DNA from: Bacteroidaceae bacterium
GTDB taxonomy: Bacteria > Bacteroidota > Bacteroidia > Bacteroidales > Bacteroidaceae
NCBI GenBank assembly: GCA_017429525.1
Contig: JAFROT010000030.1
Coordinates: 113,776-177,775 of the forward strand
Direction: 5' to 3'
DNA length: 64,000 nt
The translations under genes were made by a program, and so were the position numbers. Every line of letters starts with the position of its first letter. Position 1 is the first letter of the stretch. The notes below the pieces were generated by a model. It made no database searches. It was not told the origin of the DNA and was given only the letters and a program-made list of their open reading frames with translations. Below, piece after piece: positions 30,428-45,303 of the stretch.

Positions 30428-31075
30428 TCAATATTCTTCTGGGTAATTCGTTCTGCAATCATAGCAAAGGCCTTTGGGATCCAGGCATTTGACGAGGATG
30501 CTCCGCTCTTTTCTTATCGGGTCGAAGGAAACGCAAACGCCCATGGCGGCTCCGATACCCTCCACCCAGCTGTCCTTGAACTTGTTGTCAGAGGTATAGA
30601 CGTCTACGACATTACGCATGATTCCCTCTATATATTTGCGAGGGGGATTAGTGGGTAGGAGGATGTAGCCGTACCAGCGTAAGATATTGCCCGATACCAG
30701 ACCAAAATCATAGAGCAGCCGTTCATCCCGCTTGCCTCTGTCGACGAACTTCACTTTCATCAGTGTGTCGCGCACGGCTCCGATGTAGTGCCATTCGGAG
30801 TCGCCATAGGTGGCCGCCTCGCGCAAGTACATCTTTTTATAATTCTTGCCTTTAAGGAGCGTGTCCCCTGCAATCTGATAGCGATATCTCTCGTGCAGAT
30901 CGTCGGTGTTTTCCGCAGCTGCGTAAACCCATACTTTTCCCTCTTCTGCAAAACTGTGATAATCCTCTGGAACCACCCGCTCGCTGTCGGGGACGATGAT
31001 ATCGTCTACAGTGCAGCCGAAGAAAGAGGACGCAATCAGGAGACAGAAAAAGGGTTTGATCAAAACTCTTGACAT
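30428..31075 (-). CDS. hypothetical lipoprotein
   Basis: Lipobox LLIASSFFGC. No recognisable domain. 6 nt upstream of the beta-barrel gene. Confidence 0.55.
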   Translation of the reverse strand: MSRVLIKPFFCLLIASSFFGCTVDDIIVPDSERVVPEDYHSFAEEGKVWVYAAAENTDDLHERYRYQIAGDTLLKGKNYKKMYLREAATYGDSEWHYIGAVRDTLMKVKFVDRGKRDERLLYDFGLVSGNILRWYGYILLPTNPPRKYIEGIMRNVVDVYTSDNKFKDSWVEGIGAAMGVCVSFDPIRKERSILVKCLDPKGLCYDCRTNYPEEY

Positions 31076-31117
31076 TGTATTGCTATTCCTGGTTATATTG
31101 GTATAACGTTTAAGATG

Positions 31118-31575
31118 TCAATTTATTTTAAGTTGAGCGCCTAAATTTACTTTGAAACCATTCTTTATGAAAACCCTGTGATTACCTTGAATAGTCAACT
31201 TGCCTCCGTTGACAATCACATTCCCTTCTGCTTCTAAGTCTGTTACGTCATTTCCAACATAAATGTTATCGCCAGTGATAGTAGAGTTGGTTGAAAAAAT
31301 TCGATTCTGCACATATACATTATTTCCGATATTTTTATGAACCTCCGTCGTAAAGGCTGCATAATTAGGTTTAGTAACAGTTACGATAAAATCAGCCGCA
31401 TTGGTATGGGATAAATCAAAAGAGTAACTGGATTATAGTATCATCAACAGCCACCGTCGATAGCAAAGTTAAGTCCTTTATAGAGCTTGGAAACTCAAGC
31501 GTAGAGCTCATATCGTCAAACTTATGAATACTAATCGGTACGGGAATGATGCTAATATTGTCAAGTGAATCAATA
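31118..31575 (-). pseudogene. frameshifted 3' fragment of a large surface-protein gene
   Basis: Two minus-strand reading segments, (R)IDSLDNISIIPVPISIHKFDD...TIIQLLF* and SYSFDLSHTNAADFIVTVTKPNYAAFTTEV...GNHRVFIKNGFKVNLGAQLKIN*, joined only by a frameshift near 31430. No start or N-terminal part. AT-rich. Confidence 0.6.
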
Positions 31576-31577
31576 CG

Positions 31578-31721
31578 TTACTTCATCAGCACCTTCCTAC
31601 CGTCCCTGATATAGACTCCTTTCGGGAGCACGGAGGGCACGGAGCAGGCAGAGGGCACAGAGAGGCGGCGACCAGAGAGGTCGTACCAGTTTCCCAGACT
31701 CTTCGAGGCTTCCTGCTCACT
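31578..31721 (-). pseudogene. orphan T9SS C-terminal sorting domain remnant
   Basis: Minus-strand frame reads EQEASKSLGNWYDLSGRRLSVPSACSVPSVLPKGVYIRDGRKVLMK*. GC-rich, no upstream coding body. Overlaps the stop of the mini-HlyD ORF. Confidence 0.7.
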
Positions 31722-32244
31722 CTATCCCCAATACACGAGGCAGTAGGTGGCGTTCACGCAAGATTATGGTGGCAGTGGCATCCATCAACCAAGGATCTTC
31801 GCGACGATCGAGGCTCCATAGCTCGAGTTCAAAACCACCTTTACTCGTGTGGTAATCTCCTACGCAGAGCTCAATGGGATAGAGTCCCGTGGAGTCTGAA
31901 TGCTGAGGGAGCGACTGAAGTTTGGCTGTGTAGTAGCCCCAACTCCTGTCCTTCACGTCCAGGGTGATGTGTGCCTCCATCCCTGGCCGCAATTGCTTCA
32001 AATTCGATGCTTCCACGTTTGTTCGAAAGTACCATTCGTTCGGTATACCTGTCACTTCCAGCGTCCCGTGTACCACCAACGTGTCCGGCCACGGAGTAAA
32101 CCAGCCCGCTGTCAGCAACGCCACCACAATGACAGTCATCAAGGCCATCCAACAGCGTAAAGTCCATTTCGGAGTGTTCCACTTGAACATCTCCTTTTTC
32201 TCGCTGTGATCCCACAACATTTTTTTGTTCTTGTTTGCTCCCAT
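31717..32244 (-). CDS. truncated HlyD-like adaptor (TM anchor plus beta-barrel, no coiled-coil hairpin)
   Basis: WMALMTVIVVALLTAGWFTPWPDTLVVHGTLEV parallels YVSLVVTALLMVMVVLSVLITYPDTVIGEVTLTS of the 430-aa HlyD. The C-terminus ATATIILRERHLLPRVL parallels GSAEIITEPKRLIERLF. Confidence 0.6.
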   Translation of the reverse strand: MGANKNKKMLWDHSEKKEMFKWNTPKWTLRCWMALMTVIVVALLTAGWFTPWPDTLVVHGTLEVTGIPNEWYFRTNVEASNLKQLRPGMEAHITLDVKDRSWGYYTAKLQSLPQHSDSTGLYPIELCVGDYHTSKGGFELELWSLDRREDPWLMDATATIILRERHLLPRVLGIE

Positions 32245-32340
32245 TTCTTTTGATTATTAAATGTTATATACAAATTTTATATAATCCTTAAGCCTTAAGT
32301 ATACTAAAGATGTCGGGACCTACACTCACATATAATAAAA

Positions 32341-34533
32341 CTACAATTCTGGAATTCCCTGAGAAGCATAGAGGCTGTAGTAGAAACCTTTCTTCTCCAT
32401 CAGTGTCATATGATTCCCGACCTCAACGATATGCCCGTCATGCATTACAATGATTTGATCGGCCCCTCTGATTGTACTAAGTCGATGAGCAATAACTACA
32501 ACTGTCCTGTTCTCAAAAGCACTTTCCAATGCATTGACAATTTTACGTTCATTGATTGTATCAAGAGCATTGGTAGCCTCATCAAGAAAAAGGAATTGCG
32601 GGTTACGATAGAGGGCTCGAGCTATCAATAAACGTTGTTTTTGCCCTCCGCTGAGGCCTCTGCCACGTTCGCCAATCATAGTTTTAAATCCTTTGGGCAT
32701 TGCATTAATTTCATCAAGAATTTGTGCTGTTCGGCAGCAATCCAAGACTCGTTCATGGTCTATATGTTCATCATCCAGAACAATATTTCCTAGAATAGTA
32801 TCACTGAACATCTTTCCATCTTGCATTACAACACCACAAATACTTCTCCATTTACGCAGATTTATGTTCGAAACATTCATTCCTCCCATCTTAATCTCAC
32901 CGAAAGATGGTTTGTAAAGACGTACCAATAGTTTTAACAGTGTGGACTTTCCACTTCCGCTTCCACCCACAATGGCAGTCACTTTGTTTTCTGGAATATG
33001 CAAATAGATGTTTTTTAGAACTAATGGGGCATTTGATGTGTACTGGAACACAACATTTTCAAACGTAATGTCTTTTTTTTCTGGCAAAATAGTTGTAGCC
33101 CCAAGCGAAAGCAATTCCTCCTCGTCTTCCAATTGCCGGATCTCATTCATCCGCAAGAATGATATCTTAGCATACTGAGCAGAAACGACAAAATTGATAA
33201 ATTGCACAAGTGGGCCATTGAGCATCCCAAGGATAAACTGTGTGGAAATCATTACGCCAAAGGTGATATCTCCTTTGATAACGGCTGTAGCACAGAAAAA
33301 GACTATCACCATATTCTTAATGCTATCAATGAATTGTGCTCCAAGATTTTGCATATTTGTAACAGCAAGAACTCGCTTGTTTACATGATACAGGCTTGCT
33401 TGTATGCCTTCCCATTTCCAACGACGCGAACGCTCATAATTGTAGATTTTAATATCTTGTATGGCCGACACCGTTTCAACCCAATAACTTTGGTTGCGCG
33501 AGACAAGTTCGAAGTACTGCCAATCCAATCTCTTGCGGATTTTCAAGAACAGAAGTACCCATGCTATATAGCAAACCGAGCCAGCAAGAAATACGAAGAA
33601 TATGGTTACATTATATACCAAGAGGATGAGTGAGAAAACCACAAACGTCAACAATGAGAAAATCATCGACAAAGAATTGTTCATGATAAACGCCCTTATA
33701 CGCTCATGATCCTGCGCTCGCTGAAGTATATCTCCAAGGAACTTATTCTCAAAGAACGTTACTGGCAGTTTCATCAATTTTATCAGATAGTCCGAAATCA
33801 GAGCCACGTTAACACGCGCAGTAATATGCATTAGTATCCAATCCCGCATCACATTGAATAACATCACACTTATCAATATGCAGACATTACCGATAAGTAC
33901 CATGTTTATGAAATTAATGTCCGAGGTACTTATACCCACGTCTATTACGGCTTTCGAGATAAAAGGCAGAATAGCTTGCAGAGCTGTCACAATTGTCATG
34001 ATACAGAAGATAAGTGCAAACTCACGAAGATATGGTCTGAAATAGCGCAACAAACTCACTATACTATCCTTCTGCTGACGGCGTTCCAATTCTGTTGCCT
34101 TGAAATCAGCAGTGGGTTCTATTGCCATCAAGACACCTGTTTGTTCACCTCTCAGATACCATCCATGACGAAACTCTTCATGCGTGTATCGGATATGACC
34201 TTTAGCAGGATCTGCCACATAGACGAATCTTTTGTCTGCATCATAGACAACTACGAAATGGCTTTCATTCCAGAATACTATAGCTGGTAATGGAACCTTA
34301 TACACCAAATCATTCAATGCGCAACGTATTACCAACGTATGTAATCCTATCTTTTCTGCACCAGTAGCGAGATTTGCTAACGAAACACCTTCTTTCGTGA
34401 TTCCTGAAAGATCACGCAGATACTGTAAAGAGTAATAGCGACCATAATACTTCGCCACCATCTTCAATGATGCAGGACCACAATCTTGAGAGTCCATTTG
34501 GTATTCTATTGGAAAGCGTCTAAAAAAGTTCAT
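32341..34533 (-). CDS. peptidase C39 domain-containing ABC exporter (PCAT, double-glycine leader processing)
   Basis: C39 catalytic QMDSQDCGPASLKMV and NESHFVVVYD. 6-TM domain. Walker A GGSGSGKST, LSGGQKQRLLIARAL, FLFLDEATNALD. Confidence 0.92.
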   Translation of the reverse strand: MNFFRRFPIEYQMDSQDCGPASLKMVAKYYGRYYSLQYLRDLSGITKEGVSLANLATGAEKIGLHTLVIRCALNDLVYKVPLPAIVFWNESHFVVVYDADKRFVYVADPAKGHIRYTHEEFRHGWYLRGEQTGVLMAIEPTADFKATELERRQQKDSIVSLLRYFRPYLREFALIFCIMTIVTALQAILPFISKAVIDVGISTSDINFINMVLIGNVCILISVMLFNVMRDWILMHITARVNVALISDYLIKLMKLPVTFFENKFLGDILQRAQDHERIRAFIMNNSLSMIFSLLTFVVFSLILLVYNVTIFFVFLAGSVCYIAWVLLFLKIRKRLDWQYFELVSRNQSYWVETVSAIQDIKIYNYERSRRWKWEGIQASLYHVNKRVLAVTNMQNLGAQFIDSIKNMVIVFFCATAVIKGDITFGVMISTQFILGMLNGPLVQFINFVVSAQYAKISFLRMNEIRQLEDEEELLSLGATTILPEKKDITFENVVFQYTSNAPLVLKNIYLHIPENKVTAIVGGSGSGKSTLLKLLVRLYKPSFGEIKMGGMNVSNINLRKWRSICGVVMQDGKMFSDTILGNIVLDDEHIDHERVLDCCRTAQILDEINAMPKGFKTMIGERGRGLSGGQKQRLLIARALYRNPQFLFLDEATNALDTINERKIVNALESAFENRTVVVIAHRLSTIRGADQIIVMHDGHIVEVGNHMTLMEKKGFYYSLYASQGIPEL

Positions 34534-35822
34534 TTTCCCTGTTGTGATTTTAGATTATCAAATAGCCGTTCGATGAGTCGTTTTGGTTCCGTAATAATCT
34601 CTGCTGAACCATGAGCTTCATACCCAACATCCAACGTAACACCGTAATTTGTCTGAAGTCCTTTTGGGAAATCCATCAATACCAAATAACTTTCCCTATT
34701 ACCGTTCAGAGTCTGCACTGATTGCTTTAAGTGCGAGATATGCTTCACTCGACCTTCCAAATGGCCAAACTCATCATAAGGATAGTTTTCTAGTTTCACA
34801 CTTACACGCTGTCCAACTTCCACTTTACCAAAACCTAAGGCTGATATATGTGCTTCACCGAAAATATTACCACGGAAAGGGAGTACAGTAAACAATATCT
34901 TCCCAGGCGTCACCATTTCATTCTCTCGCCAGAATCCCAGATATTCAAGACGCCCATTTATTGCAGACGTCAGAAGATAACGTTCCTTCCATTGTCGCAA
35001 TGAACTCCGCAATTCGTCTTCTTTCACCCGTACATAATTCAAAGCCTTATTGAGTTCTTCTTTCTCATTTATGCTCACTCGAGCTTTCTCAATTTGATTT
35101 TGCTGAATTTCCGACTGAGTTGAAAGGAAATTACTTTCTTGACTTATCTGCCTCTGCTCAAAAGCTATCACAGCACTATACCGATGTTCCATGTCTTCAT
35201 CACTGATGGCACCCTCATTATGTAATATACTATCTTTCACTAAGCGCAAACGTGATAGTTGCAAATCACCTTCATTCATTAGTAATTGGCGTTTCTGAAT
35301 CTCTGCTAAAGCATAATGAACCTGTATTTGTGCATCAAGCGACTGCAGCATATTCTTATAGACACTTGTCGAACGCAGTTGTTCCAGTTGCTGGCGAGCA
35401 AATACGACCTCATTGTACATACTACTTAAATTGCCTAATACCAATGACGGCAAGGGCTCGTTACTCATAGCATTACGACCTAAAAGGGAGTCCAGTAACA
35501 AAATGTCTGGCAACAACGCACCATCATCTACAAATGCAATAATATCCCCTACACAAACAGAGTCACCATCGGCATGCAACAGATGTAAACGCCCTGTCGA
35601 AGTTGCGACAAGACGGACAGGTGCGACCTCCGATGTTAAAGTAACCTCGCCAATCACGGTATCAGGGTATGTGATAAGGACGCTTAATACAACCATCACC
35701 ATTAATAAAGCTGTCACCACAAGCGATACATAGCGTGTCCATCCTGTCGGCATACGTTCAATTATATCTTGGACTTCTTCTGAACGGAACATCAGGTTTT
35801 CTTCATTTCGTACGGTATTCAT
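34530..35822 (-). CDS. HlyD family secretion adaptor protein
   Basis: N-terminal TM, long heptad-rich central region, C-terminal beta-barrel. ATGA overlaps with both neighbouring genes. Confidence 0.85.
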   Translation of the reverse strand: MNTVRNEENLMFRSEEVQDIIERMPTGWTRYVSLVVTALLMVMVVLSVLITYPDTVIGEVTLTSEVAPVRLVATSTGRLHLLHADGDSVCVGDIIAFVDDGALLPDILLLDSLLGRNAMSNEPLPSLVLGNLSSMYNEVVFARQQLEQLRSTSVYKNMLQSLDAQIQVHYALAEIQKRQLLMNEGDLQLSRLRLVKDSILHNEGAISDEDMEHRYSAVIAFEQRQISQESNFLSTQSEIQQNQIEKARVSINEKEELNKALNYVRVKEDELRSSLRQWKERYLLTSAINGRLEYLGFWRENEMVTPGKILFTVLPFRGNIFGEAHISALGFGKVEVGQRVSVKLENYPYDEFGHLEGRVKHISHLKQSVQTLNGNRESYLVLMDFPKGLQTNYGVTLDVGYEAHGSAEIITEPKRLIERLFDNLKSQQGK

Positions 35823-37300
35823 AAGTATTCCTCCTCAAGATTCTTTTTTTTTACAAAATCATACAGTGTAATTGTGCGTAGCTGATAGTATTCACTGAAC
35901 AAAGATTGTAGCGCTGAGAGCATATTCTTGAGAGATTCGCGCAGAGATTTGTGTGCATCTATAACCTCTGCAAGTGAAAACTCACCTTGGCTGAAACGAA
36001 GCATGGCAAGACGATATTGCTCCTGAGCTAAGGCGTATTGTTTTAGACCCAAACGATAACTGGCTGACGATTGATTGTAAACTTTTATGCTTTTATGGAT
36101 TTCTTGTTCTGCTTTTAGTAGAGATTCATTTATTCCTATTTGTGCCTGCTGGTAGTCATTCTCAGCCATCCTTCGACGATTACGACTAATACCCCAGTCA
36201 AAAGATGGAATACTCAGTGTCAGGCTTATACTTTGTCGATGATTAGGATGTCGATAGGCATTGCTGAATGTGTGAGCAAATTGATTAAGTCCATAATTAA
36301 TTGAAAGTTCTCCTCCGAGCCGAGTCGACAAACGCTGTTTCCTCAAAGTCTGCAACACCTGTTGTCGTTGAAGTTCCAAAGCTAGAACTTTCGGGGTGTT
36401 GGCCTGAGCAACAGCATACACCTCATTTTCGTCCAGCAAAAGTGGTAGGGCTGCAGCATCTGGTTTCACTACGTTGACATCCAACTCCACTAGGCCCAAA
36501 CGAGAACGTAACAAAAACAAGGCATCATTCAACTCTGTCTGAGAAGCCACCAAGGCTTGTTCTGCTTCAAATCGCTCAAGACGAATCACGTTTAATTCAT
36601 AGTCTGTGACATATCCGAGTTTACGACGCAACTGGCCAAAAGCCAACAAGGTATCACTAGCAGAAACATCCTGCTCTGCCTGCTCTTTCTCAACTTGAGC
36701 CATATAAGCTTTCAGATAAAGACGAGCTACATCTTGTTGCTCGTTTGCTAGAGCAGTGCAAAGCGTCTTCACAGCTACTTTGTACTGCAGGCGATTGATG
36801 GAACGCTCTATGATGTAGTCTTTATAGCCACCACGAAGACCTTGGCTATAACTTAAAGAGAATGGTGTAGAACTAAAGTTGTTTCGTGAGCCCGTGAATT
36901 CGCGCAGATAACTTAATCCAGAACTTGCCGTTAATATGCCGCCCAAAGGCCCAATCCTTTGCGAAAGGGTCAATGTAGCAACTGATGTGTTGACATAATC
37001 CTCCACACTGTGATACTCGCCTTTCTGTGGGTCTTGTAGAAGTCTCAAAGAGCGATTGAAACTTATTGGGTTCACGCTAAGTCCAATCATCGGCAGAAAG
37101 TCTTTCTTGTAGTTCTCATATTTGAGGACAGAGTTCTCATAATGCAATCGAGCTGAACGCGAACGAGGAGAGAGAAGAGCCTGCTTTTCTACCAAATAAG
37201 CAAACGACTTCGTATCCGTTTCACTAGACATCAGATTAAATCTGCATGACATCATCAATATTATAGCAACAAAAAGCCTATCCATTTTTATTGTACTCAA
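35819..37300 (-). CDS. TolC family outer-membrane channel
   Basis: 493 aa, signal sequence, two-fold repeated helix/strand pattern. First gene of the TolC-HlyD-PCAT operon. Confidence 0.8.
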   Translation of the reverse strand: MSTIKMDRLFVAIILMMSCRFNLMSSETDTKSFAYLVEKQALLSPRSRSARLHYENSVLKYENYKKDFLPMIGLSVNPISFNRSLRLLQDPQKGEYHSVEDYVNTSVATLTLSQRIGPLGGILTASSGLSYLREFTGSRNNFSSTPFSLSYSQGLRGGYKDYIIERSINRLQYKVAVKTLCTALANEQQDVARLYLKAYMAQVEKEQAEQDVSASDTLLAFGQLRRKLGYVTDYELNVIRLERFEAEQALVASQTELNDALFLLRSRLGLVELDVNVVKPDAAALPLLLDENEVYAVAQANTPKVLALELQRQQVLQTLRKQRLSTRLGGELSINYGLNQFAHTFSNAYRHPNHRQSISLTLSIPSFDWGISRNRRRMAENDYQQAQIGINESLLKAEQEIHKSIKVYNQSSASYRLGLKQYALAQEQYRLAMLRFSQGEFSLAEVIDAHKSLRESLKNMLSALQSLFSEYYQLRTITLYDFVKKKNLEEEYL

Positions 37301-37354
37301 TAATAACGTTTTCTACATCACATACTCCCTAAGTTCTGGAATAATAAGGAAATG

Positions 37355-37399
37355 TTCAAAAAAATCCTATATATGGGTGCCCAAATCTGGCACCCATAT
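37355..37399 (-). terminator. rho-independent terminator of the 970-aa gene
   Basis: atatgggtgcc (37371-37381) pairs with ggcacccatat (37389-37399). On the minus strand it is followed by ataggattttttt. Confidence 0.75.
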
Positions 37400-37503
37400 T
37401 GCAATAATCAATCATTTATTTAACGATCCATAAAACAACATTAAAAATGATAACTTTATCCAGTCGCTTTATCCATAATCAAGTCCGCATTAACTCGCCA
37501 TAC

Positions 37504-40416
37504 TCATTTGTTATACAGCAGTTGTCCGTCAGCCTCTTGGCCTTCAGCCTCAACGAGGATGCTGGTTTGCTGGCTGTTGTTGTAGAAGGTGACGTTCGCT
37601 CGGCCATCGTCGTCGAGTTGCAGGTCGGGATTCCAGTAGAGCGTGCGACGGTAGTCCTTCTGACCCTCCACTGGCGGGTTGCGCTGATAGTCGGGATGGT
37701 AAAAGTCTTCCTGATAAGCGAATCCTGGCAGGATGTAGCGGCGGTCACGATAAGTTACCCGGCGTGCCCAGTCAGGGTAGCGGTGAAGCGACACCTCCAC
37801 GCTGGGCTGGTTGCCCTGTTCGTAACGCTCATCACCCTCGCGACGAGGCGAGTAATCGGAGTAGACATACACTTTATCCAGATATTCCAGACGTTGGTAG
37901 CGTCTCTTGTCGCCACGCGGCATGAACGGTGGCGTAAATCTACTCATTGCGTCCTCATCCTTGCTCACGAAACGCATAGGCAACGAGTCGAAGTAGAGCT
38001 TGAAGTCGTAGAAACGGTTCATACCCATATCACCGATATAGAGGCTGGCAGTCTGCGTGCCGAGGTCGTCGGAATTGGAATAGTGCGTCATCAGCCCGGC
38101 ATCCATAATTTCATTGAACACGGCATAAGCATCTTTCACATAGGCGGGCTTGGAGAGGTCTATGCGCCGCTTACCTCCATGACTGGCACGTACGATGACT
38201 TGTTCCAGTAGATGATCCCCATCTGTCGTGAGCGCTGATGGGAGGACATCTTCACGTAATGAGGCATTATGTACTTGATAGTAAGTGTAAGGTTTGACAA
38301 AACGGGGATAAGGGAAGTTCAGACGGACATAGTATTCGGGAAATGTCTTCAGCCGATCGTTTTCGTCTGCCTCCATCTCCACCCAGTTGAACGTCTTGTT
38401 TTTGCTCCACTTTGCCGTGTCGCTGGCTGCGAGGAAGAAGACGCACTCGCCCTCAAAGCGAGGCAGTTCCATACGGAAGGCACCACCGCGTGTCTCCACA
38501 TCGCCCACGATGCCATTCTTAGGATCATCGGGATGGAAGAACTCAGCATGTACGCGCACCTCACGTCTCAGATTGCCCCGCTCGATGAAGCGACGTTCAC
38601 TCTCCCTGACGCGCTCCCTCTGCTCGGATGACTCATGCGTCAGCGCATTGTACGACCGATTGTCAATCGCCTGATTTCCGAAACCGTCATTGTCTACACG
38701 GCTCCGCTCCACAACGCTACTGGAGGGACGTAACCCAAACGTTCGTTCGCCATCATATTGCTTTTCAGTTCCAATGCCATCGAGCAGCAGATAGTGGGAC
38801 TCCAGTGCTGCAGCATAGTCCTCATCCTCCTCAGCATACGTATTGTAGCGGTTGACGGTACCCGTCACCATCTGTGTCTGCTCTGCGGGATGTGTCAGTT
38901 CGAAGGCACCACTGACAGCCATGTCCTGCCAGTTGAAACGGCGCCAACCCTGCGTCAGCATCAGCAGGTCGAGCCCACGACGATGCTCCTCGTCGTCCTT
39001 CTCGAAGAACCACTCCGCCTGTGGCACGAAGCCCTTGATTTCCGATGCCAGCAACATCTCTGTCATGATATTGCCGCTATCGAATGTCACATCCGTGTGG
39101 GCGGCATCGCGGACGGCGAGAGAGAAGTAAGACGCTGAATGAGAAGCATTGGCTGAGGATGTCTTCGTTTTCGCTATCGTCAACGCTACTTTTTCGAATG
39201 GCTTGTATTGATCCTTTACGCCGTTGATGGCCAACGTTGGCGTCATCATATCCGTGGACGTGACGAAGAAAAGACGGTCGGCATACACCCGGCCGTCTGC
39301 ATCGAAGACCGTCAGTTGGTGGACACCAGGGGAAGTAGTGGGAAGTTGAAAGACAAAAGAGTTAGACGATTGAGTGTCAGCATTGCCTAATGTCTCGAAA
39401 TGCTCGAGGACACCTTCACGCATCACCGTCACCCCCAGTTGTTTCTCCTGCGTCTTGCCGCAGACATAGATCTCAGCCTGCCACTCACCGCTGTGCTGAT
39501 GCAACTGCAGTGCTACGCCTTCGGCCACAACAGTTTTGATTTCCTGACGAACTTGCGCGCCGTCGTTGCTCGCAGTGAACACCACTTCGTAGTTCTGTCC
39601 CGCTTCAGGTGTGAACGTGAATGTACCTCGCCCACGGTTTTCGCTCGTCACGAAATCCACGGTCTCACCTTGATTGTTTTCTATTTTCTGATTCTCATTT
39701 TTCACCCTGATTGCTAGTGAGCCTTCGCGAACCTCACCCTCGTTCGTTGCCACCTCGAAAGCGACGCGGCACGGCACACCTGCTACGAGGTTACCACCCT
39801 CGGGGAATAACGACAACCGCAGCTGGGGCTGCGAAGGGGCATCCTTGAAGTAACGGCGTAGCGGGCGAAGTGTCATATCTTTGTAGAAATCACCCGCTTC
39901 CTTAGGTTTGTCATAAACAGGGAACACGCGCGAGTAAAGCTTGTCGTAGTCACGGTAATAGTCCTTTGCCATGCCTTTGTTGTAAAAGCTCAGTTCTCGT
40001 GTCCAGCGATGCGCATGCTCCGTCTGGCCCCAGTTCAGCTGCCAGCGTGTGTACGCACGCAATTCGAAATACCCACTATAGAGCGAATCGGGTAAGGCGA
40101 AGAAGCCATGCCCTCGACCGTCTTGCATCTCGATCAGCTTACGCTCAACGAGGTAGCCATCGTGGTTCCATAGTTCGGCATACAACACACGCGAGATCTT
40201 GCTTGGGCGGTCGCCATTCGTCCGCCGCGTGTAGGCAGCAAACCAGATGGTGTCGCCGAGATAGTAGCTTGTATTATCCATGTGTACATAAACCTTCTCT
40301 TGCGGAATGCGCTCCCCAAAGAGGCGCAACCGCTGCGTGAGGCTGTCCATGCAGCTCTCTGCGGAGGCCGCGAATGTGCTGAGTAGAGTCAGCATACTGA
40401 CGAAAATAGTCTTCAT
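37504..40416 (-). CDS. large secreted protein with MG2/alpha-2-macroglobulin-like N-terminal region
   Basis: Signal MKTIFVSMLTLLSTFAASA. QEKVYVHMDNTSYYLGDTIWFAAYT...VLYAELWNHDGYLV...GYFELRAYTRW pattern. Host-like GC. Family call made from memory only. Confidence 0.55.
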   Translation of the reverse strand: MKTIFVSMLTLLSTFAASAESCMDSLTQRLRLFGERIPQEKVYVHMDNTSYYLGDTIWFAAYTRRTNGDRPSKISRVLYAELWNHDGYLVERKLIEMQDGRGHGFFALPDSLYSGYFELRAYTRWQLNWGQTEHAHRWTRELSFYNKGMAKDYYRDYDKLYSRVFPVYDKPKEAGDFYKDMTLRPLRRYFKDAPSQPQLRLSLFPEGGNLVAGVPCRVAFEVATNEGEVREGSLAIRVKNENQKIENNQGETVDFVTSENRGRGTFTFTPEAGQNYEVVFTASNDGAQVRQEIKTVVAEGVALQLHQHSGEWQAEIYVCGKTQEKQLGVTVMREGVLEHFETLGNADTQSSNSFVFQLPTTSPGVHQLTVFDADGRVYADRLFFVTSTDMMTPTLAINGVKDQYKPFEKVALTIAKTKTSSANASHSASYFSLAVRDAAHTDVTFDSGNIMTEMLLASEIKGFVPQAEWFFEKDDEEHRRGLDLLMLTQGWRRFNWQDMAVSGAFELTHPAEQTQMVTGTVNRYNTYAEEDEDYAAALESHYLLLDGIGTEKQYDGERTFGLRPSSSVVERSRVDNDGFGNQAIDNRSYNALTHESSEQRERVRESERRFIERGNLRREVRVHAEFFHPDDPKNGIVGDVETRGGAFRMELPRFEGECVFFLAASDTAKWSKNKTFNWVEMEADENDRLKTFPEYYVRLNFPYPRFVKPYTYYQVHNASLREDVLPSALTTDGDHLLEQVIVRASHGGKRRIDLSKPAYVKDAYAVFNEIMDAGLMTHYSNSDDLGTQTASLYIGDMGMNRFYDFKLYFDSLPMRFVSKDEDAMSRFTPPFMPRGDKRRYQRLEYLDKVYVYSDYSPRREGDERYEQGNQPSVEVSLHRYPDWARRVTYRDRRYILPGFAYQEDFYHPDYQRNPPVEGQKDYRRTLYWNPDLQLDDDGRANVTFYNNSQQTSILVEAEGQEADGQLLYNK

Positions 40417-40457
40417 AGTCGTAGGCTTTTTAGATTGGTTAGACATGATTTCGACGG

Positions 40458-40465
40458 CAAAGGTA
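40458..40465 (-). promoter_or_regulatory. -7 box (TAccTTTG) for the 970-aa gene
   Basis: Plus-strand caaaggta, only 12 nt from the listed ATG at 40446, so the ATG at 40416 is the likely start. Confidence 0.45.
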
Positions 40466-40820
40466 CGGACTTTTCAGTCACCCGTCAAGCATCTAGTGTG
40501 GAAAAATGAAATGAAAGAAAAGTTATTTAAGCCGCTCTTTTTTTATCAATTATCCTTGTATGCTTACATTAATACTGTGGAAATCGTATCTTTATTATAG
40601 CTCATATTATTGGAAAAATCAGTCCTACTGGATTGTATGTGAGTTCAGGTATAGGACATTAAAAGCCAAATCTTATCTGTAGTAAAGGAATAGACTATTG
40701 GCCGAGGCATTTGAACAATGATCATAATTTACATTTTTCCGATAAAAGTGACTCACGCCTAACCCAGCAGAACTGATTATTATATTAAAATTAATATATA
40801 GAATAATCCACACAATGAAA

Positions 40821-41471
40821 TTACACAGTAGGCAAAGTATATTCAGCCCCTTGTTGATTAGATGTGTTTCGAATTATTACTTTAATACCTCCTTCTACTT
40901 CTTCAAAATGATAGGCAATATACATTAGACCTACATGTTGACTAAGCATAGTACTTCTAGCCCAATTAAAGAAATTCGTCATTTCAATAGAGTTTTTTTC
41001 TAAGCCTGATTGACCAGCAGCTTCATTCACAATTTGTTCCAACCATACTTGATTCACATTTGGTTCATCATCTGTACTAAAACCGAATAATGTTGAATAT
41101 TCAGACACATAATCCCAAGATACTTTGAATTGCTTATCTGAATAAAAAGACATCAATGCTTGATAGTAGTTATTCTCATCTGAAACACCATAAGCAATCT
41201 GATAGTCAATGTCAGACATCACTGTTCCCCAATTTACACTTGATGATGTTCCAGAATAGTCTTCAAAATAATTAAGGAATTCATCAATATCAGGATAAGA
41301 GTCACTTGGGAAATAAGAAGGATTACCATAAAGTGCAATCATCTCCTCATAAGAGAGATAAGCATCCTCCCCGTCTAAGCTCATTCCACCTACCAGACTT
41401 TTACTCTGAGTAGAGCTTACAACTTTGTAGTTCTTTGCGAGTTGCTCCAATGAATAGCTTTTAATTTTCAT
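40821..41471 (-). CDS. 216-aa acidic protein with double-glycine-type leader (candidate PCAT cargo)
   Basis: N-terminus MKIKSYSLEQLAKNYKVVSSTQSKSLVGG|MSLDGED. No Sec signal, TM helix or Cys. The mature part is rich in D/E/Y/S. AT-rich gene 28 nt downstream of the GT14-MT gene. Confidence 0.6.
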   Translation of the reverse strand: MKIKSYSLEQLAKNYKVVSSTQSKSLVGGMSLDGEDAYLSYEEMIALYGNPSYFPSDSYPDIDEFLNYFEDYSGTSSSVNWGTVMSDIDYQIAYGVSDENNYYQALMSFYSDKQFKVSWDYVSEYSTLFGFSTDDEPNVNQVWLEQIVNEAAGQSGLEKNSIEMTNFFNWARSTMLSQHVGLMYIAYHFEEVEGGIKVIIRNTSNQQGAEYTLPTV

Positions 41472-41499
41472 AATTTTATTATTTTAAAATGATTAATAG

Positions 41500-42945
41500 C
41501 TACCTCGCCAATAGCAGCGAGAGTTTATGATTTCTTACTAAATTCTGATTCAAAATAGATGTGCCAAGTTCATCTTTTTTGAAGCCCAACTCTTGAAACG
41601 ATATTTCGTATTCATTAATGCTTTTTAAACCCTTTTTAAAAGATTGAAAAGCCTCTATAATCAAGATATATCGTTTTGAAAGACGAGCAATATTTTGTAC
41701 CGCTTTATCCCTGAACTGCATAGGAATACAGCTCAGTGTATCCATACTTAATACGAGGTCAAAAGGGGAATCTACTTCTATATTATCTGTTAAATCTGCT
41801 ACCCCACACAACTCATCATTTTTGGGGAGTAACAAAGATGACAACTTTGGAGTATATGGATTTGCATCATAACCAGCCGTTGGGATCCCTCTTTTTCTTA
41901 GAGCTGCTGTATAGAAACCTGCTCCACATCCAATATCCAGCACATTTAGTATTTTCAAGGAGCGACACGTTTTATAGATCTCACGAAGAATATTATAATC
42001 ATAAGAATACCGCATAAGACCATCGTATCTCCAGCCACCAGTTTTAGTAACTTCGTATGCAGACTGTTTTAGTAAGTAGGTATCTATATTGTGGACTAAG
42101 TCCGCACAAATTGGATACTCCATCTTTCGTGCAAAATAGAAATCTTTGGATGATGCCAACGCATGAAAATGCTTCATTCCCAGATTTGCAGGACAATTCC
42201 CATTCTCTTCTCTCCAAATGATAAATCGAAGATCTGAGGGTACGATTCTACTTTTCCCAACAATATTTACCAATACCGTTGCAATGTAATATTCCTCTGC
42301 AGCAAAAGTCCAACGAGCACGATGATAAAAAGAAGGATGTTGCGATGTATAGTGAATAATTGCTTTGGTTGCTTCATAAGTTATAGAAAACCATTGTGTA
42401 CTTCCATAAAGATGGTCAAACTGATCTGGAATACGCCGTTTGATTCCCAACTTATGTTCTAAGTTAATTATTTTTTGCATCCACTTTATAGCGTCTTTGC
42501 TTTCTTTATTTATATAATCATAAGGGAAATAGTATTGGAATCTAGAAAACGTATATTGATCCCAACGAGGATTTGGAATATTTGCATAACGAATAAATTC
42601 TTTGCCCTGTTTCTTTTCAAAAAAAGAGAGAAATTCATCAAGTGGTTTAATTGGGTAATCTTGCCCACTTATGAGATGAATATAATCGTAGCCACCATCC
42701 TTCACCACTTGTCGAAGTAAAAAAATTTCTGTTTTAAGAATGCTATGTCCCCCCCAGTGAACATTATACTTTCGATACACTGCACGAACTTGTGATATAC
42801 AAGCTATTGAAGATAATTCTTCATCTGAAATAACAGCTTTCTTGTCAATATGTACATAAATAGAGCAGTCCTTAATAAAATACTCTATCAAGTGGCGAAG
42901 CTGACCAAAGTCTTTGTGCGCTAATATCAAAATGGCATGTTTCAT
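41500..42945 (-). CDS. GT14 (core-2/I-branching type) glycosyltransferase fused to a class I SAM-dependent methyltransferase
   Basis: N-terminal half MKHAILILAHKDFGQLRHLIEYF...YVHIDKK...VHWGGHSILKTE...HLISGQDYPIKP. C-terminal half VLDIGCGAGFYTAALRKRG...FDLVLSMDTL. Confidence 0.75.
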   Translation of the reverse strand: MKHAILILAHKDFGQLRHLIEYFIKDCSIYVHIDKKAVISDEELSSIACISQVRAVYRKYNVHWGGHSILKTEIFLLRQVVKDGGYDYIHLISGQDYPIKPLDEFLSFFEKKQGKEFIRYANIPNPRWDQYTFSRFQYYFPYDYINKESKDAIKWMQKIINLEHKLGIKRRIPDQFDHLYGSTQWFSITYEATKAIIHYTSQHPSFYHRARWTFAAEEYYIATVLVNIVGKSRIVPSDLRFIIWREENGNCPANLGMKHFHALASSKDFYFARKMEYPICADLVHNIDTYLLKQSAYEVTKTGGWRYDGLMRYSYDYNILREIYKTCRSLKILNVLDIGCGAGFYTAALRKRGIPTAGYDANPYTPKLSSLLLPKNDELCGVADLTDNIEVDSPFDLVLSMDTLSCIPMQFRDKAVQNIARLSKRYILIIEAFQSFKKGLKSINEYEISFQELGFKKDELGTSILNQNLVRNHKLSLLLAR

Positions 42946-43017
42946 TGCAAACTTCTATAGCTATTCCTAATGATGATTGAAACACTTTTACATAAATTTT
43001 TGGGAGAAACCGAGCTT

Positions 43018-43392
43018 CTATAGCTCGATCTCTCCGATGAAACTTTGTTCACCACGTACGACTTCAATGAGGTAAGTGCCACAAAGTTCTGACGGCAGTA
43101 TGATATACGTCTCGTCAGCGGGGACATAGGTGGTATAAACGATTTGCTCGTCACCATTCTCATCTTCCTCCTTAATATATACCGTGAACGCGCAGGAATC
43201 CCAGAAGTAGAGAGTATGGTCTTCAAGACTGACGGAAGGAACACGGATAGGAGCGCGACTATAACCAGGTTCTGGATCTGTATAAGTGATGGGGCCATCG
43301 AGCACCAACGGTATACGATTATCAATTGAATCACCTGCGAAGGTGTTCAGGGCTGCCAGAGTGAGGCAGAGGGATAGGAAAAGTCTCTTCAT
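43018..43392 (-). CDS. DUF3244-like small secreted beta-sandwich protein
   Basis: Signal MKRLFLSLCLTLAALNTFAG. LEDHTLYFWDSCAFTVYIKEED...CGTYLIEVVRGEQSFIGEIEL pattern. Confidence 0.6.
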   Translation of the reverse strand: MKRLFLSLCLTLAALNTFAGDSIDNRIPLVLDGPITYTDPEPGYSRAPIRVPSVSLEDHTLYFWDSCAFTVYIKEEDENGDEQIVYTTYVPADETYIILPSELCGTYLIEVVRGEQSFIGEIEL

Positions 43393-43461
43393 AGTTTTGA
43401 TGAGTTTGTTTGAAATAGGTAAATAATGATTTTAAGTTAAATGGATTTCCGCAATCCGTTG

Positions 43462-43469
43462 CAAAGGTA
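43462..43469 (-). promoter_or_regulatory. -7 box (TAccTTTG) for the DUF3244/GT14-MT/GG-protein operon
   Basis: Plus-strand caaaggta, 70 nt upstream of the ATG at 43392. Confidence 0.5.
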
Positions 43470-43588
43470 TAGCGATGCGACGAAAAAAAATTTCACAATA
43501 TTTCAATTCTCACTTTTCGATTTCACAATATTTCACTCGCAAAGAGAAAAAAGTGGCCGTAAGAGATTGGGATTCCGTGAATTCTATG

Positions 43589-43596
43589 TATCTTTG
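43589..43596 (+). promoter_or_regulatory. -7 box (TAtcTTTG) for the TPR-HTH regulator
   Basis: tatctttg, 25 nt upstream of the ATG at 43621. Confidence 0.5.
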
Positions 43597-43620
43597 CGCA
43601 TCCACAAAAAAGTTTCGATC

Positions 43621-45303
43621 ATGAACCGCTTTATATCTATCTTTTGTTGTGTTTTTCTCTTGACAGGATGTCAGGAACGCTCCATCAAGAGCGATCTTGA
43701 TGTCTACGAGAGCAACCTCGAAAAGACTCCGAAGGCCATCTATGAGATCCTGAATGGCCTACAACCGACGAACGATGGAGACCGCGCACGCCACGCCTTG
43801 CTGACTATTAAGGCGAAGAACTTGGCCTATATCCCGTTGGAGGGGAAAGATACCATCGCTATCTTAGATGCCATCGACTATTACCAGAGACGCAGCGTCA
43901 CGGAACAGGTGATGCTGGGGTACTACCTTCTCGGCAGTATCTACCGGGACTTGGGGGATGCGCCACGAGGCGTGGAGGCTTTCACAAGAGTGATTGAGGT
44001 CGCAGACACCACACGGAAGGACTGCAACTACAGACTGATGGCAAGAGCAGAGGCGCAGAAAAGTAATCTGCAATCAGCCCAAAGTGTTCTGCCAAAAGCT
44101 ATTGAATCATCCTATCGTGCAGAATATTACGCAAGGATGGCAAAAGACACTTCCTATGTGTTTGAACTCGCTTTAGGAACTATAGGTTTATCAATGCTCA
44201 ATGGGAACCCCAAACCTTTATTGGAGGAAGCACCGCTCCTTATGGAAAAATGCCTGGAATTTGGTGATACAGCAATTGCTCTCGGCTACGCCAAGGCTTG
44301 GGCTTGGTATTACCTACAATTAGGAATTGTAGATAAAGCAGAGCAGTTGGTTGCCTTCTATGACCAATTTAATGGCACCCCCTATCCCATCTACTACGGC
44401 ACTAAGGGAGAACTCTATCTGGCTCGTCACCAGGTGGATTCGGCTGAAAGATGCTTCCGCAAAGAGCTGAAGGCCACGGACTGGAACAACAGGCAAACAG
44501 CCTATCGAGGACTGAAGAAGGTGTTCGAGCAGCGGCATCAAGCGGACTCGGCGCTGAAATATGCAACCTTGCAATGTGATGCCGTAGACAGCGACTACTA
44601 CCATAAGGTATCCGATGCCATCATACAGATGGAGCACGTCTATAACTATGAGGCAGCGAAGGAACAGGCTCGGCGCAGCGAGATGGCACAACAGCGAATG
44701 AGGTGGACAATAGGATGGATCGTGATGGCAATGGCAGTAGCCGCGTTGGCTGCCCTGCTCGCATTCCGCACCTACCGTGACCGACAACGGCGCCGACTGC
44801 TCCAGGAGGAGGCGAAGAACGAAGCCATCAGGGCACAACTGGCAGAAAAAGACAAGCAGTTGGCGCTGGAGGAGAACCGAAGGATGAAGAAACTGCTGGA
44901 TTACCAGAAGAAGATGGAAGGGATGCAGGCCACCATCGAGGAGTTCCGTGAAGAGGTGCGGTCGTTAGATGCCTTAGGCGACGGCGTACGACAGATGCGC
45001 AAGCAACTGGAAAGCGGGAAGCATGCCTCGATCCGCAACTGGGAGGCACTGCAGCATCAGGTGGTCAGACTGCACCCCGACTTCGTCAAGACGTTGCGCA
45101 AGGAGATCAACCCTCTACAGGCGAACGACCTCCATCTGGCGTTGCTCATCAAGATGGGATTCAAGCCGAGCGAGATTGCCGTACTCATGGACAAGTCGCC
45201 CTCCAGCATCTCGATGGCACGCACCCGCCTCTACGCCAAGCGCTTCGGCACCAACCCGCCAACGCCCGAAGCCTTAGACGAATGGATTGAAGAGATAGAA
45301 TGA
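43621..45303 (+). CDS. transmembrane TPR sensor with cytoplasmic coiled coil and C-terminal HTH
   Basis: Lipoprotein-like signal MNRFISIFCCVFLLTGCQ. TPR-like repeats. TM WTIGWIVMAMAVAALAALLAF. Heptad-rich segment. C-terminal LHLALLIKMGFKPSEIAVLMDKSPSSISMARTRLYAKRFG. Confidence 0.7.
   Translation: MNRFISIFCCVFLLTGCQERSIKSDLDVYESNLEKTPKAIYEILNGLQPTNDGDRARHALLTIKAKNLAYIPLEGKDTIAILDAIDYYQRRSVTEQVMLGYYLLGSIYRDLGDAPRGVEAFTRVIEVADTTRKDCNYRLMARAEAQKSNLQSAQSVLPKAIESSYRAEYYARMAKDTSYVFELALGTIGLSMLNGNPKPLLEEAPLLMEKCLEFGDTAIALGYAKAWAWYYLQLGIVDKAEQLVAFYDQFNGTPYPIYYGTKGELYLARHQVDSAERCFRKELKATDWNNRQTAYRGLKKVFEQRHQADSALKYATLQCDAVDSDYYHKVSDAIIQMEHVYNYEAAKEQARRSEMAQQRMRWTIGWIVMAMAVAALAALLAFRTYRDRQRRRLLQEEAKNEAIRAQLAEKDKQLALEENRRMKKLLDYQKKMEGMQATIEEFREEVRSLDALGDGVRQMRKQLESGKHASIRNWEALQHQVVRLHPDFVKTLRKEINPLQANDLHLALLIKMGFKPSEIAVLMDKSPSSISMARTRLYAKRFGTNPPTPEALDEWIEEIE

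Follow-up and report, generated by a model that had tools for sequence, protein, structure and literature searches.

PCATs (ATP-binding cassette (ABC) transporters that contain a peptidase) are generally thought of as peptide machines. In the glycocins, such as sublancin (SunA/SunS/SunT) and glycocin F, a precursor is glycosylated in the cytoplasm, cleaved at a double glycine (GG) and exported by a PCAT. In the Bacteroidales, the bacteroidetocins (PMC6671954, as summarised in PMC12219008) are peptides of <100 aa with a GG leader of ~15 aa and an unmodified, class IIa-like mature peptide, whose production needs a C39-ABC exporter. PCAT cargos of this order also include RiPPs (peptides made by the ribosome and modified after translation) of the radical-SAM (S-adenosylmethionine) or lanthipeptide type (PMC10352776). 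Bfe1, in turn, is an experimentally established antibacterial effector of Bacteroides fragilis whose N-terminal region loads onto Hcp2–Hcp3 (PMC13035841). Here, we analyse a gene cluster of a Bacteroidaceae bacterium that lies in a 64,000-nt stretch of DNA (positions 113,776–177,775 of contig JAFROT010000030.1), hereafter called the window. It encodes a PCAT/HlyD/TolC exporter, a 216-aa protein with a GG leader (the cargo), a fusion of a GT14 glycosyltransferase with a methyltransferase (GT14-MT), a large protein with macroglobulin (MG) domains, and a tetratricopeptide repeat (TPR) regulator next to a DUF3244-like protein. An earlier note on this DNA could not match the combination it saw to a described system, and the literature that we searched likewise holds no description of a cluster combining a ~200-aa GG-leader protein, GT14-MT, an MG-domain protein and C39/PCAT. 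The cluster is probably a secreted, possibly modified, antibacterial protein system of a new kind.

Related loci (given here as L numbers) were gathered from contigs with cargo homologues, and then from a scan of GTDB genomes and JGI metagenomes for the GT14-MT fusion, with open reading frames (ORFs) mapped by phmmer. The system is rare: the GTDB scan returned at least nine species representatives with the fusion, and a few metagenome contigs, most of them of ruminant-gut origin, add to these. Its genes recur in the order TPR regulator, ~120-aa DUF3244-like protein, GT14-MT, leader protein, MG-domain protein of ~860–980 aa and C39-bearing gene(s), and the module in which GT14-MT is followed by the leader protein is present in every homologous locus recovered. 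The MG-domain gene follows the cargo gene in the window, L001, L011, L012, L014, L015, L021, L023, L027, L094, L095, L100 and L101. The earlier note had regarded the locus as split in two; the intervening 980-aa gene proves to be a conserved member, in an order that recurs in MAGs (metagenome-assembled genomes) and metagenome contigs of diverged Bacteroidales, and the interval as a whole forms a single conserved cluster, found in Bacteroidales of gut and rumen.

The export genes of these loci vary. L014 is an exact copy of the window layout, including TolC, HlyD and a 730-aa PCAT, and L097 has TolC–HlyD–PCAT and lacks the large MG-domain protein. L015/L016 and L094/L095 encode a stand-alone C39 protein of 139–141 aa, and L027/L098 join the C39 domain to a DUF3405-like enzyme. 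All six locus types with a [GA]G-leader cargo and 5 kb or more of sequence downstream (the window, L014, L097, L015, L094/L095 and L027/L098) encode C39 with its catalytic Q, C and H intact, whereas a search with the C39 hidden Markov model (HMM) turned up no C39 domain in 134 control loci (1.92 Mb) that have the GT14 domain alone. Loci of cargos without GG have <4 kb downstream, and in many of them a G-S or G-G that could serve as a site precedes the NPY motif introduced below; they are unusable as a C39 control. The association of the cargo with GT14-MT, drawn in the earlier note from a single locus, is thus not a matter of chance, and homologues of the 216-aa protein co-occur with GT14-MT in every locus and with C39 in all six types.

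The 216-aa ORF was also correctly recognised in that note as the only GG-leader-like ORF of the window, with no short GG-peptide gene near the exporter: no other convincing GG-leader ORF emerged from ORFs of at least 20 aa in three intergenic regions or from a window-wide regular-expression scan. A word-indexed search returned three relatives of the cargo; HMMER, run exhaustively over 1.84 billion cluster representatives, returned seven, all of 82–228 aa and none in a known family. M1, K2, K4, Y6, G28, G29, Y41, E43, M44, G49, F54 and P55 are invariant in the seven-sequence alignment. When window-type sequences are aligned with cargos recovered from related loci, G29 and E43 are invariant in all 13, with the cleavage site in the same column; G28 is Ala in two AG-leader cargos (...SIIAG), and G28–G29 are both invariant only among the seven window-type homologues. 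The family leader consensus, MKIKxYxLEQLxxxxPVLSxxExxxLxGG, contains the canonical L-12/S-11/E-8/L-4/G-2/G-1 series preceded by an N-terminal extension, and the window leader reads V-12, S-11, Q-8, L-4, G-2 and G-1. Hydrophobic residues at −4 and −12 and S-11 are kept across the family, and E-8 in most relatives. The hallmarks of a double-glycine leader (GG at −2/−1, hydrophobic −4 and −12, no Sec signal) are therefore all present, with the acidic −8 residue coming from the family consensus.

The leader is set apart from the rest of the protein in both conservation and predicted structure. Leader identity is 16–19 of 29 residues in five of six homologues (7 of 29 in the most distant), versus ~33% or less for residues 61–216, and in an AlphaFold2 (AF2) model of the cargo with a mean predicted local distance difference test (pLDDT) score of 70.5, residues 1–28 fall below 50 and lie apart from the fold. 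Behind the leader, the mature cargo carries the motif L-S-Y-E-E-M-I-x-x-Y-G-x-P-x-Y-F-P, followed by a variable C-terminal domain. It is, as the earlier note held, large and acidic, with 29 D+E, 6 K+R, 17 Tyr and no Cys. An acidic, Cys-free composition is typical of type I substrates. Further searches added little: genome contigs yielded no matches to the cargo alignment, a profile of the 75-aa N-terminal alignment found a single 82-aa match (probably a length effect), and searches of PDB sequences with the window and L097 cargos found no match. Leader features and C39 linkage together support the 216-aa protein as the best candidate substrate of the C39/PCAT exporter, the role for which the earlier note had proposed it.

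Judged by its domains, the exporter is an ordinary Gram-negative PCAT/HlyD/TolC machine with all three parts of a tripartite type I system. In the PCAT, Peptidase_C39 (PF03412, 117.5 bits) is joined to ABC_membrane and ABC_tran in the same polypeptide, and residues 4–722 align with residues 10–721 of PCAT1 (4ry2; E 5e-105); ComA also aligns over its full length. Its score of 409 bits against the NCBIfam model for peptide cleavage/export ABC transporters (TIGR01193) lies below the cut-off of 524, and the protein reads as a diverged branch whose architecture is still complete. The adaptor matches HlyD_3 (24 bits, cut-off 22.2) and TIGR01843 (E 6.9e-22), and the TolC-like protein matches Pfam OEP (E 5e-21, 75.8 bits) with two repeats. 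Both features singled out in the earlier note hold up: translational coupling, in that the ATGA stop/start overlaps of TolC/HlyD at 35819–35822 (minus strand ...CTTATGAATACC) and of HlyD/PCAT at 34530–34533 (minus strand ...GAAAATGAACTTT) are both real, and the catalytic Cys and His of C39, where seven C39 domains from related loci all have Q12, C18 (QDCGPASL) and H92 (NESHFVVVY). The window PCAT also has D108. The C39 domains of the window, L014 and L097 PCATs are 70–77% identical, whereas their cargos have nothing but the leader and the N-terminal motif in common, which is the pattern expected of a cognate leader–exporter pair.

What the cargo might do is suggested by the sister loci, which hold polymorphic-toxin signatures (NlpC/P60, Bfe1-like C-termini and Bfi1-like immunity genes) that the earlier note had missed. 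In L024, the leader and N-terminal module are joined to an NlpC/P60 domain (36.8 bits, cut-off 23; PRK10838 E 1.8e-7). L097 (3884–6016) encodes a 263-aa cargo with a GG leader (…ELELIGG), an NPY…WxGGYV motif and a C-terminus like that of Bfe1 (E 2.7e-7), a type VI secretion system (T6SS) effector, followed by three tandem Bfi1-like transmembrane (TM) immunity genes of 135 aa (E 1.6e-7), all beside TolC–HlyD–PCAT. The L028 cargo has a metallopeptidase-like region below threshold. The post-leader motif of L097 and L099, NPY[ST]xxE[FY]...WxGGYVxGLG, aligns with LSYEEMIALYGNPSYFP of the window cargo, with E43 invariant, and the L029 cargo has both versions of the motif (HYTEEQMLEMVENGTWKGGYVNG). 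The L097 arrangement suggests that one effector family (Bfe1-like) is served by both the T6SS and a type I/PCAT route. At the level of the family, a constant N-terminal module is thus combined with variable C-terminal domains. Since the same module precedes NlpC/P60, Bfe1-like and other C-termini, the architecture is that of polymorphic toxins, and we favour, by analogy, an antibacterial effector role for the window cargo as well.

The fusion that the earlier note had read in GT14-MT is borne out, as both domains score above their Pfam cut-offs: the GT14 Branch domain (Core-2/I-branching, xylosyltransferase-like; residues ~1–260) with 68.7 bits (cut-off 23.4; E 7.7e-19), and a class I SAM methyltransferase domain (~330–435) with 34.7 bits to Methyltransf_11 (E 2.8e-8). 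Orthologues are 50–65% identical and all keep the Branch domain. The profile's best sequence match in the PDB is human xylosyltransferase 1 (XT1; 6ej7, E 1.4e-15), and the methyltransferase half resembles UbiG-type O-methyltransferases. GT14-MT has no signal peptide, which places it in the cytoplasm together with the leader-bearing precursor. Its gene is the one directly before that of the cargo, and it stays the same where cargos differ in their C-termini. From this constancy, position and location, from the putative tailoring enzyme fused to C39 in L027/L098 and from the precedent of the glycocins, we infer that GT14-MT may modify the cargo, i.e. act as its maturase. One candidate acceptor is position 40 of the cargo in the motif S/T-Y-x-E-M, just before the conserved aromatic residue and three residues before E43, which is Ser/Thr in 11 of 13 cargos and Asn in the other two. 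Other candidates are the acidic Ser-Gly stretches (EDYSG, with S73, in the window cargo, D-S-G or G-S repeats in sister cargos); they resemble the acceptor sites of XT1, an enzyme that acts directly on Ser within acidic Ser-Gly surroundings.

A further conserved member is the MG-domain protein. Its match to Pfam MG2 is weak and sub-threshold, and a search of PDB sequences with the MG family found no match. An AF2 model built from 42 homologues has a mean pLDDT of 60.6, better in residues 50–450, and Foldseek matched this model to complement C3/C5, TEP1 and bacterial alpha-2-macroglobulins (A2M) with E-values of 5e-14 to 1e-11 and probability 1.0. According to this model, MG beta-sandwich domains form an alpha-2-macroglobulin-like array in the 980-aa protein; the thioester motif CxEQ was not found in its sequence. 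Its probable start is MKTIF (40416), 30 nt further into the ORF, which gives 970 aa in agreement with the gene call. The family has >3000 members, all unnamed and mostly from metagenome-assembled genomes (MAGs) of Bacteroidaceae, many with an inserted CarboxypepD_reg domain. A role in specific immunity was considered and is unlikely, as the protein is 50–66% conserved across loci whose cargos are 25–40% identical or unrelated, and the family is huge. The idea of a GC-rich interloper was also dropped: gene order is conserved, and the same mosaic of GC (guanine plus cytosine) content occurs in the window, L014, L015, L027 and L094, which belong to different hosts (MG-domain gene 45–54%, GT14-MT and cargo 33–36%, C39/PCAT 37–45%).

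Taken together, we think it rather probable that the cluster encodes regulated PCAT/HlyD/TolC export of a leader-cleaved, probably GT14-MT-modified polymorphic effector. In such a system, the membrane-spanning regulator with its TPR and helix-turn-helix (HTH) domains would control the cluster together with the DUF3244-like periplasmic protein, and the AT-rich operon would yield the cytoplasmic GT14-MT and the 216-aa acidic precursor with its 29-residue leader. Before export, GT14-MT would probably glycosylate and methylate the N-terminal module that the cargos have in common (the leader with the S/T-Y-x-E-M motif and/or the acidic Ser/Gly stretches), by analogy with the glycocins. The C39 domain of the PCAT would then recognise the leader and cut after G29, and PCAT/HlyD/TolC would export the 187-aa mature protein straight out of the cell. 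The mature protein would most likely act as a polymorphic antibacterial effector. The Sec-exported MG-domain protein would be its conserved extracytoplasmic partner, with a role in specific immunity unlikely.

Several points weigh against this model. Cleavage, export, modification and toxicity of the window cargo are all deduced from sequence; its leader has Q instead of E at −8; and its mature part has no match in Pfam, NCBIfam, PDB sequences or, for the model, Foldseek. C39 occurs without an ABC transporter in half of the locus types, which means that export need not run through a linked type I system everywhere, and most of the thousands of MG-domain family members do not lie beside GG cargos. 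The set of loci is small, about a dozen distinct architectures, and comes nearly entirely from MAGs or metagenome contigs. No NCBIfam GG-leader model (TIGR01847, TIGR04149) matches the 61-aa N-terminus at E≤5, nor the full protein, as would fit an adjacency that is coincidental, with Gly-Gly at 28–29 by chance and a PCAT that exports a small GG peptide encoded elsewhere; known Bacteroidales PCATs do serve short peptides, going by PMC6671954 as relayed in PMC12219008 and by PMC10352776. Such a coincidence was already disfavoured and is highly improbable in view of the C39 linkage (six of six locus types versus 0 of 134 controls), the invariant GG position in diverged window-type homologues, the co-conservation of leader and PCAT across unrelated mature domains and the lack of a short GG ORF near the exporter.

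Other explanations accept export and differ on what is modified or what the cargo is for. Characterised GT14 enzymes mostly extend glycans, and in the sister loci L101, L029, L173 and L176, GT2, GT4 or GT25-like glycan-assembly genes replace or supplement the fusion; the extra GT2/GT4 genes of L101 and L176 in particular look more like glycan assembly. The cargo might thus be cleaved and exported while GT14-MT makes or caps a glycan or other non-protein acceptor, such as a surface polysaccharide or lipid with a methylated sugar; anchoring or receiving the cargo, or protecting the producer, could depend on the product. We regard this as unlikely, because the fusion always lies directly 5′ of the cargo gene and does not change along with the C-termini of the cargos, and hence their likely targets, because enzyme and precursor are both cytoplasmic, the enzyme being soluble and its best solved relative, XT1, a protein-directed GT14, and because L027/L098 fuse the leader-binding and -cleaving C39 domain to another tailoring-type enzyme. 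Window-type loci, moreover, have no obvious immunity gene: the 375-bp gap after the cargo holds no small conserved ORF, and the usual immunity position is taken by the highly conserved MG-domain protein, with its family of >3000. Together with the extremely acidic mature domain, which has no toxin-like family or fold, and the periplasmic sensor domain of the regulator, this would suit a secreted structural or signalling ligand of the MG-domain protein and/or the TPR domain of the regulator, serving auto-induction or surface assembly instead of toxicity. That role seems quite improbable to us, given that a homologous leader and N-terminal module is fused elsewhere to antibacterial domains (NlpC/P60, and Bfe1-like with Bfi1-like immunity genes) and that the C-terminal part of the cargo diverges fast (~33% identity or less versus ~60% for the leader), as in polymorphic toxins. 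Bacteroidetocins, as the nearest known PCAT cargos in the Bacteroidales, are likewise not known to have dedicated immunity genes.

If the cargo is indeed an exported polymorphic effector, a bolder version of the model can be put forward, as a tentative possibility that we would not bet on. GT14-MT would be a protein glycosyl/methyl-transferase that is guided by the leader or N-terminal motif and decorates polymorphic toxins of ~20 kDa ('glyco-bacteriocins') before the C39 cut and PCAT export, with the MG-domain protein as an obligatory extracytoplasmic partner and with a Bfe1-like module that can be delivered by the T6SS (without leader) or by type I secretion (with GG leader).

The features of the cluster are collected in Table 1. 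The ORF listing places every gene where the earlier note had put it; the cluster genes all lie on the minus strand, with the regulator as the sole exception.

Table 1. Genes and sequence features of the cluster, in window coordinates.
Feature	Positions	Strand	Basis or remark
Single-TM protein, 175 aa	31717..32244	-	No Pfam family; 3′ of the PCAT gene
PCAT, 730 aa (Peptidase_C39 + ABC_membrane + ABC_tran)	32341..34533	-	Profile searches
HlyD-family periplasmic adaptor (membrane fusion protein)	34530..35822	-	HlyD_3, TIGR01843
TolC-like outer-membrane channel	35819..37300	-	Pfam OEP; gene callers' start MDRLF (37285)
MG-domain protein, 970-980 aa, Sec-exported	37504..40446	-	Foldseek, weak Pfam MG2
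Promoter-like TACCTTTG, ~45 nt 5′ of the MG-domain gene	40458..40465	-	Motif match only
Mature cargo, 187 aa	40821..41384	-	Part of the 216-aa ORF 40821-41471
Cargo double-glycine leader MKIKSYSLEQLAKNYKVVSSTQSKSLVGG, codons 1-29	41385..41471	-	Predicted cut after G29
GT14-MT fusion, 481 aa, cytoplasmic	41500..42945	-	Pfam Branch + Methyltransf_11
DUF3244-like protein, 124 aa, signal peptide, Sec-exported, small beta-sandwich	43018..43392	-	Homologues' Pfam scores
Bacteroidetes -7 promoter-like motif TACCTTTG, 5′ of the DUF3244-like/GT14-MT/cargo operon	43462..43469	-	Motif match only
Bacteroidetes -7 promoter-like motif TATCTTTG, 25 nt 5′ of the regulator's probable start	43589..43596	+	Motif match only
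Transmembrane TPR-HTH regulator	43441..45303	+	Translation features, weak TPR matches

As read from its translation, the regulator runs from a lipoprotein-type signal through periplasmic TPRs and a single TM helix to a coiled coil in the cytoplasm, and ends in a LuxR-like HTH; it probably starts at M61 (~43621), at the lipobox MNRFISIFCCVFLLTGC. Matches to TPR_2/TPR_12 and DUF6377 are weak, and the NCBIfam BT3442 family (NF053779) matches the C-terminal part alone (E 7.6e-15, 54.6 bits versus a cut-off of 940). In its general plan of periplasmic TPR, TM and cytoplasmic HTH, the protein resembles the BT3442-family/SusR-like TPR regulators. The label DUF3244-like, given in the earlier note to the 124-aa protein, stands in part. 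Homologues, to which the window protein is related with E-values of 1e-10 to 1e-30, score 21.2–24.8 bits against DUF3244 (PF11589), just under the cut-off of 25, and match Por_Secre_tail weakly, whereas the window copy itself has no Pfam match, DUF3244 included, even at E≤5. Its gene comes first in the AT-rich operon. A specific tie to the cargo did not survive: the partner is the TPR regulator, which adjoins the DUF3244-like ORF in 19 of 22 locus instances, on the same or divergent strands. The pair also lies beside an unrelated Por_Secre_tail gene (L173:20115–22310). We read the regulator and the DUF3244-like protein, from their adjacency, as a generic two-gene regulatory module of the Bacteroidales, for which the cluster would give a functional context.

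Transcription of the cluster can be sketched from motif matches. A window-wide scan for the promoter-like motif TANNTTTG gave 34 matches against 21 expected, with none between the MG-domain gene and TolC; in scans for sigma-70 promoters and terminators, counts equalled the shuffled expectation. With TACCTTTG upstream of the MG-domain gene and no such motif before TolC, the MG-domain gene may head the exporter operon and may share a transcript with TolC–HlyD–PCAT. The region 5′ of the MG-domain gene that includes TACCTTTG is conserved at the DNA level between the window (40417–40560) and L012 (2520–2680), where the cargo genes are only 27% identical. The DSLTQRLRLFGERIPQEKV motif is kept across the whole family, with differences at synonymous sites in the underlying DNA. 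The cargo and GT14-MT genes have a GC content of 35–36% versus ~56% in the flanks, which agrees with the AT-rich cargo operon of the earlier note.

At the edge of the cluster, membership of the 175-aa protein in the system is uncertain, as it belongs to no Pfam family and its position is not conserved in L014 or L097. Its likeness to the HlyD N-terminus and to the EmrA barrel (E 0.03–0.08) was too faint for us to call it a 'mini-HlyD'. Beyond it lies an unusually long stretch of ~640 bp (31075–31717) without a substantial ORF. The sole ORF there (31118–31312, minus strand) encodes 64 aa, reads as the C-terminal remnant of a larger beta-rich protein, and may be a decayed gene.

Related loci add several observations on neighbouring genes. 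HU-HIG and VapE-like primase genes (Pfam) lie beside the cluster in L014 (1–2400), and primase-like and XRE/toxin-like ORFs, read by eye, in L027 (17917–19419) and L023 (6005–9808); such mobile-element-type neighbours are consistent with horizontal spread. In L015 (5468–12226), genes for a 218-aa protein and for a 1887-aa AAA_16 P-loop/TPR-like (STAND-like) protein come after the stand-alone C39 gene, in place of a type I exporter. The DUF3405-like family recurs (L027:15101–16348, L094:15226–16023, L095:7336–8112, L097:11238–12692, L024:9144–9905, L028:9204–9995 and L022:8471–9982), either alone or fused to a catalytic C39 (L027/L098) or a methyltransferase (L097); the window, L014 and L015 lack it. 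Broader MG-family loci (L173:1616–15967, L176:1–12916 and L178:5087–15850) contain the TPR regulator, a DUF3244-like protein and GT25/GT2/GT4 plus methyltransferase genes, sometimes with a C39-like–VKOR–thioredoxin protein. In these loci, a small leader-like protein without signal peptide (e.g. MKFNEVLSQGEALTPEEMMAM...GSGSGS or MAKLKLKTVQNGTEGEMANLMDSGS...), with GS or DSG repeats, comes before the MG-domain protein, after which an OMP_b-brl_3 barrel is often encoded. The window cluster is thus the GG/catalytic-C39 subtype of a broader class of Bacteroidales loci. Literature searches on DUF3244, on C39 with VKOR and on C39 with glycosyltransferases in the Bacteroidales returned nothing relevant.

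Compared with known systems, the cluster shares with the bacteroidetocins the order Bacteroidales, a ribosomal product with an N-terminal double-glycine leader, a nearby C39-ABC exporter and, presumably, the antibacterial role. However, the window cargo has 216 aa, a 29-aa leader and a novel mature domain, which puts it outside the definition of a bacteroidetocin, and its cluster type adds GT14-MT, the TPR/DUF3244-like pair and usually an MG-domain protein. Class II microcins (MccV: CvaC/CvaA/CvaB/TolC) likewise use a Gram-negative PCAT with an HlyD-type adaptor and TolC for a GG-leader product, but they are of ~10 kDa or less and have a dedicated immunity gene, no tailoring glycosyltransferase or methyltransferase and no MG-domain partner. 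PCATs or stand-alone C39 proteins paired with leader proteins of 190–300 aa would therefore widen the PCAT substrate range. Likeness to the glycocins lies in the proposed logic only (leader precursor, dedicated glycosyltransferase, GG cut, PCAT export). Theirs are small, Cys-containing peptides of Firmicutes modified by GT2 S/O-glycosyltransferases of the SunS/GccA type, whereas the enzyme here is a GT14 plus methyltransferase, the putative substrate a 187-aa Cys-free protein and the route the diderm TolC/HlyD one. With the Bfe1/Bfi1 pair of the B. fragilis GA3 T6SS, the L097 locus shares the C-terminal match of its cargo, a weak match in the N-terminal motif, to which the window cargo also aligns, and the three Bfi1-like genes. 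Bfe1 itself has no GG leader and is delivered by the T6SS via Hcp2–Hcp3 (PMC13035841), in contrast to the GG leader and C39/PCAT found here, and the C-terminal domain of the window cargo is unrelated to it. The Bfe1-like effector with a GG leader beside a PCAT suggests a passage of toxin modules from one secretion system to another, which bears on the evolution of interbacterial weapons in the gut.

The two remaining comparisons concern single proteins. Like the bacterial alpha-2-macroglobulins (E. coli ECAM, 4ziq; Salmonella, 4u48), the MG-domain protein is Sec-exported, and its model matches their MG array (Foldseek E ~1e-13), but it lacks CxEQ, is ~600 aa shorter and has no bait or receptor-binding domain that we could identify; the cluster offers a first functional context for its family. 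XT1 is the best solved sequence relative of the window GT14 domain, and its likeness extends to the D-S-G/G-S repeats of sister cargos and EDYSG of the window cargo, whereas XT1, a Golgi enzyme of eukaryotes, carries an additional Xylo_C domain and is not fused to a methyltransferase. The strict linkage of GT14-MT would indicate that rumen and gut communities contain tailored protein toxins of a new class, and it would provide bacterial GT14 enzymes with a function that can be tested; if the bolder version of the model is true, GT14-MT would be the first protein-directed GT14 enzyme in bacteria, akin to the proteoglycan xylosyltransferase.

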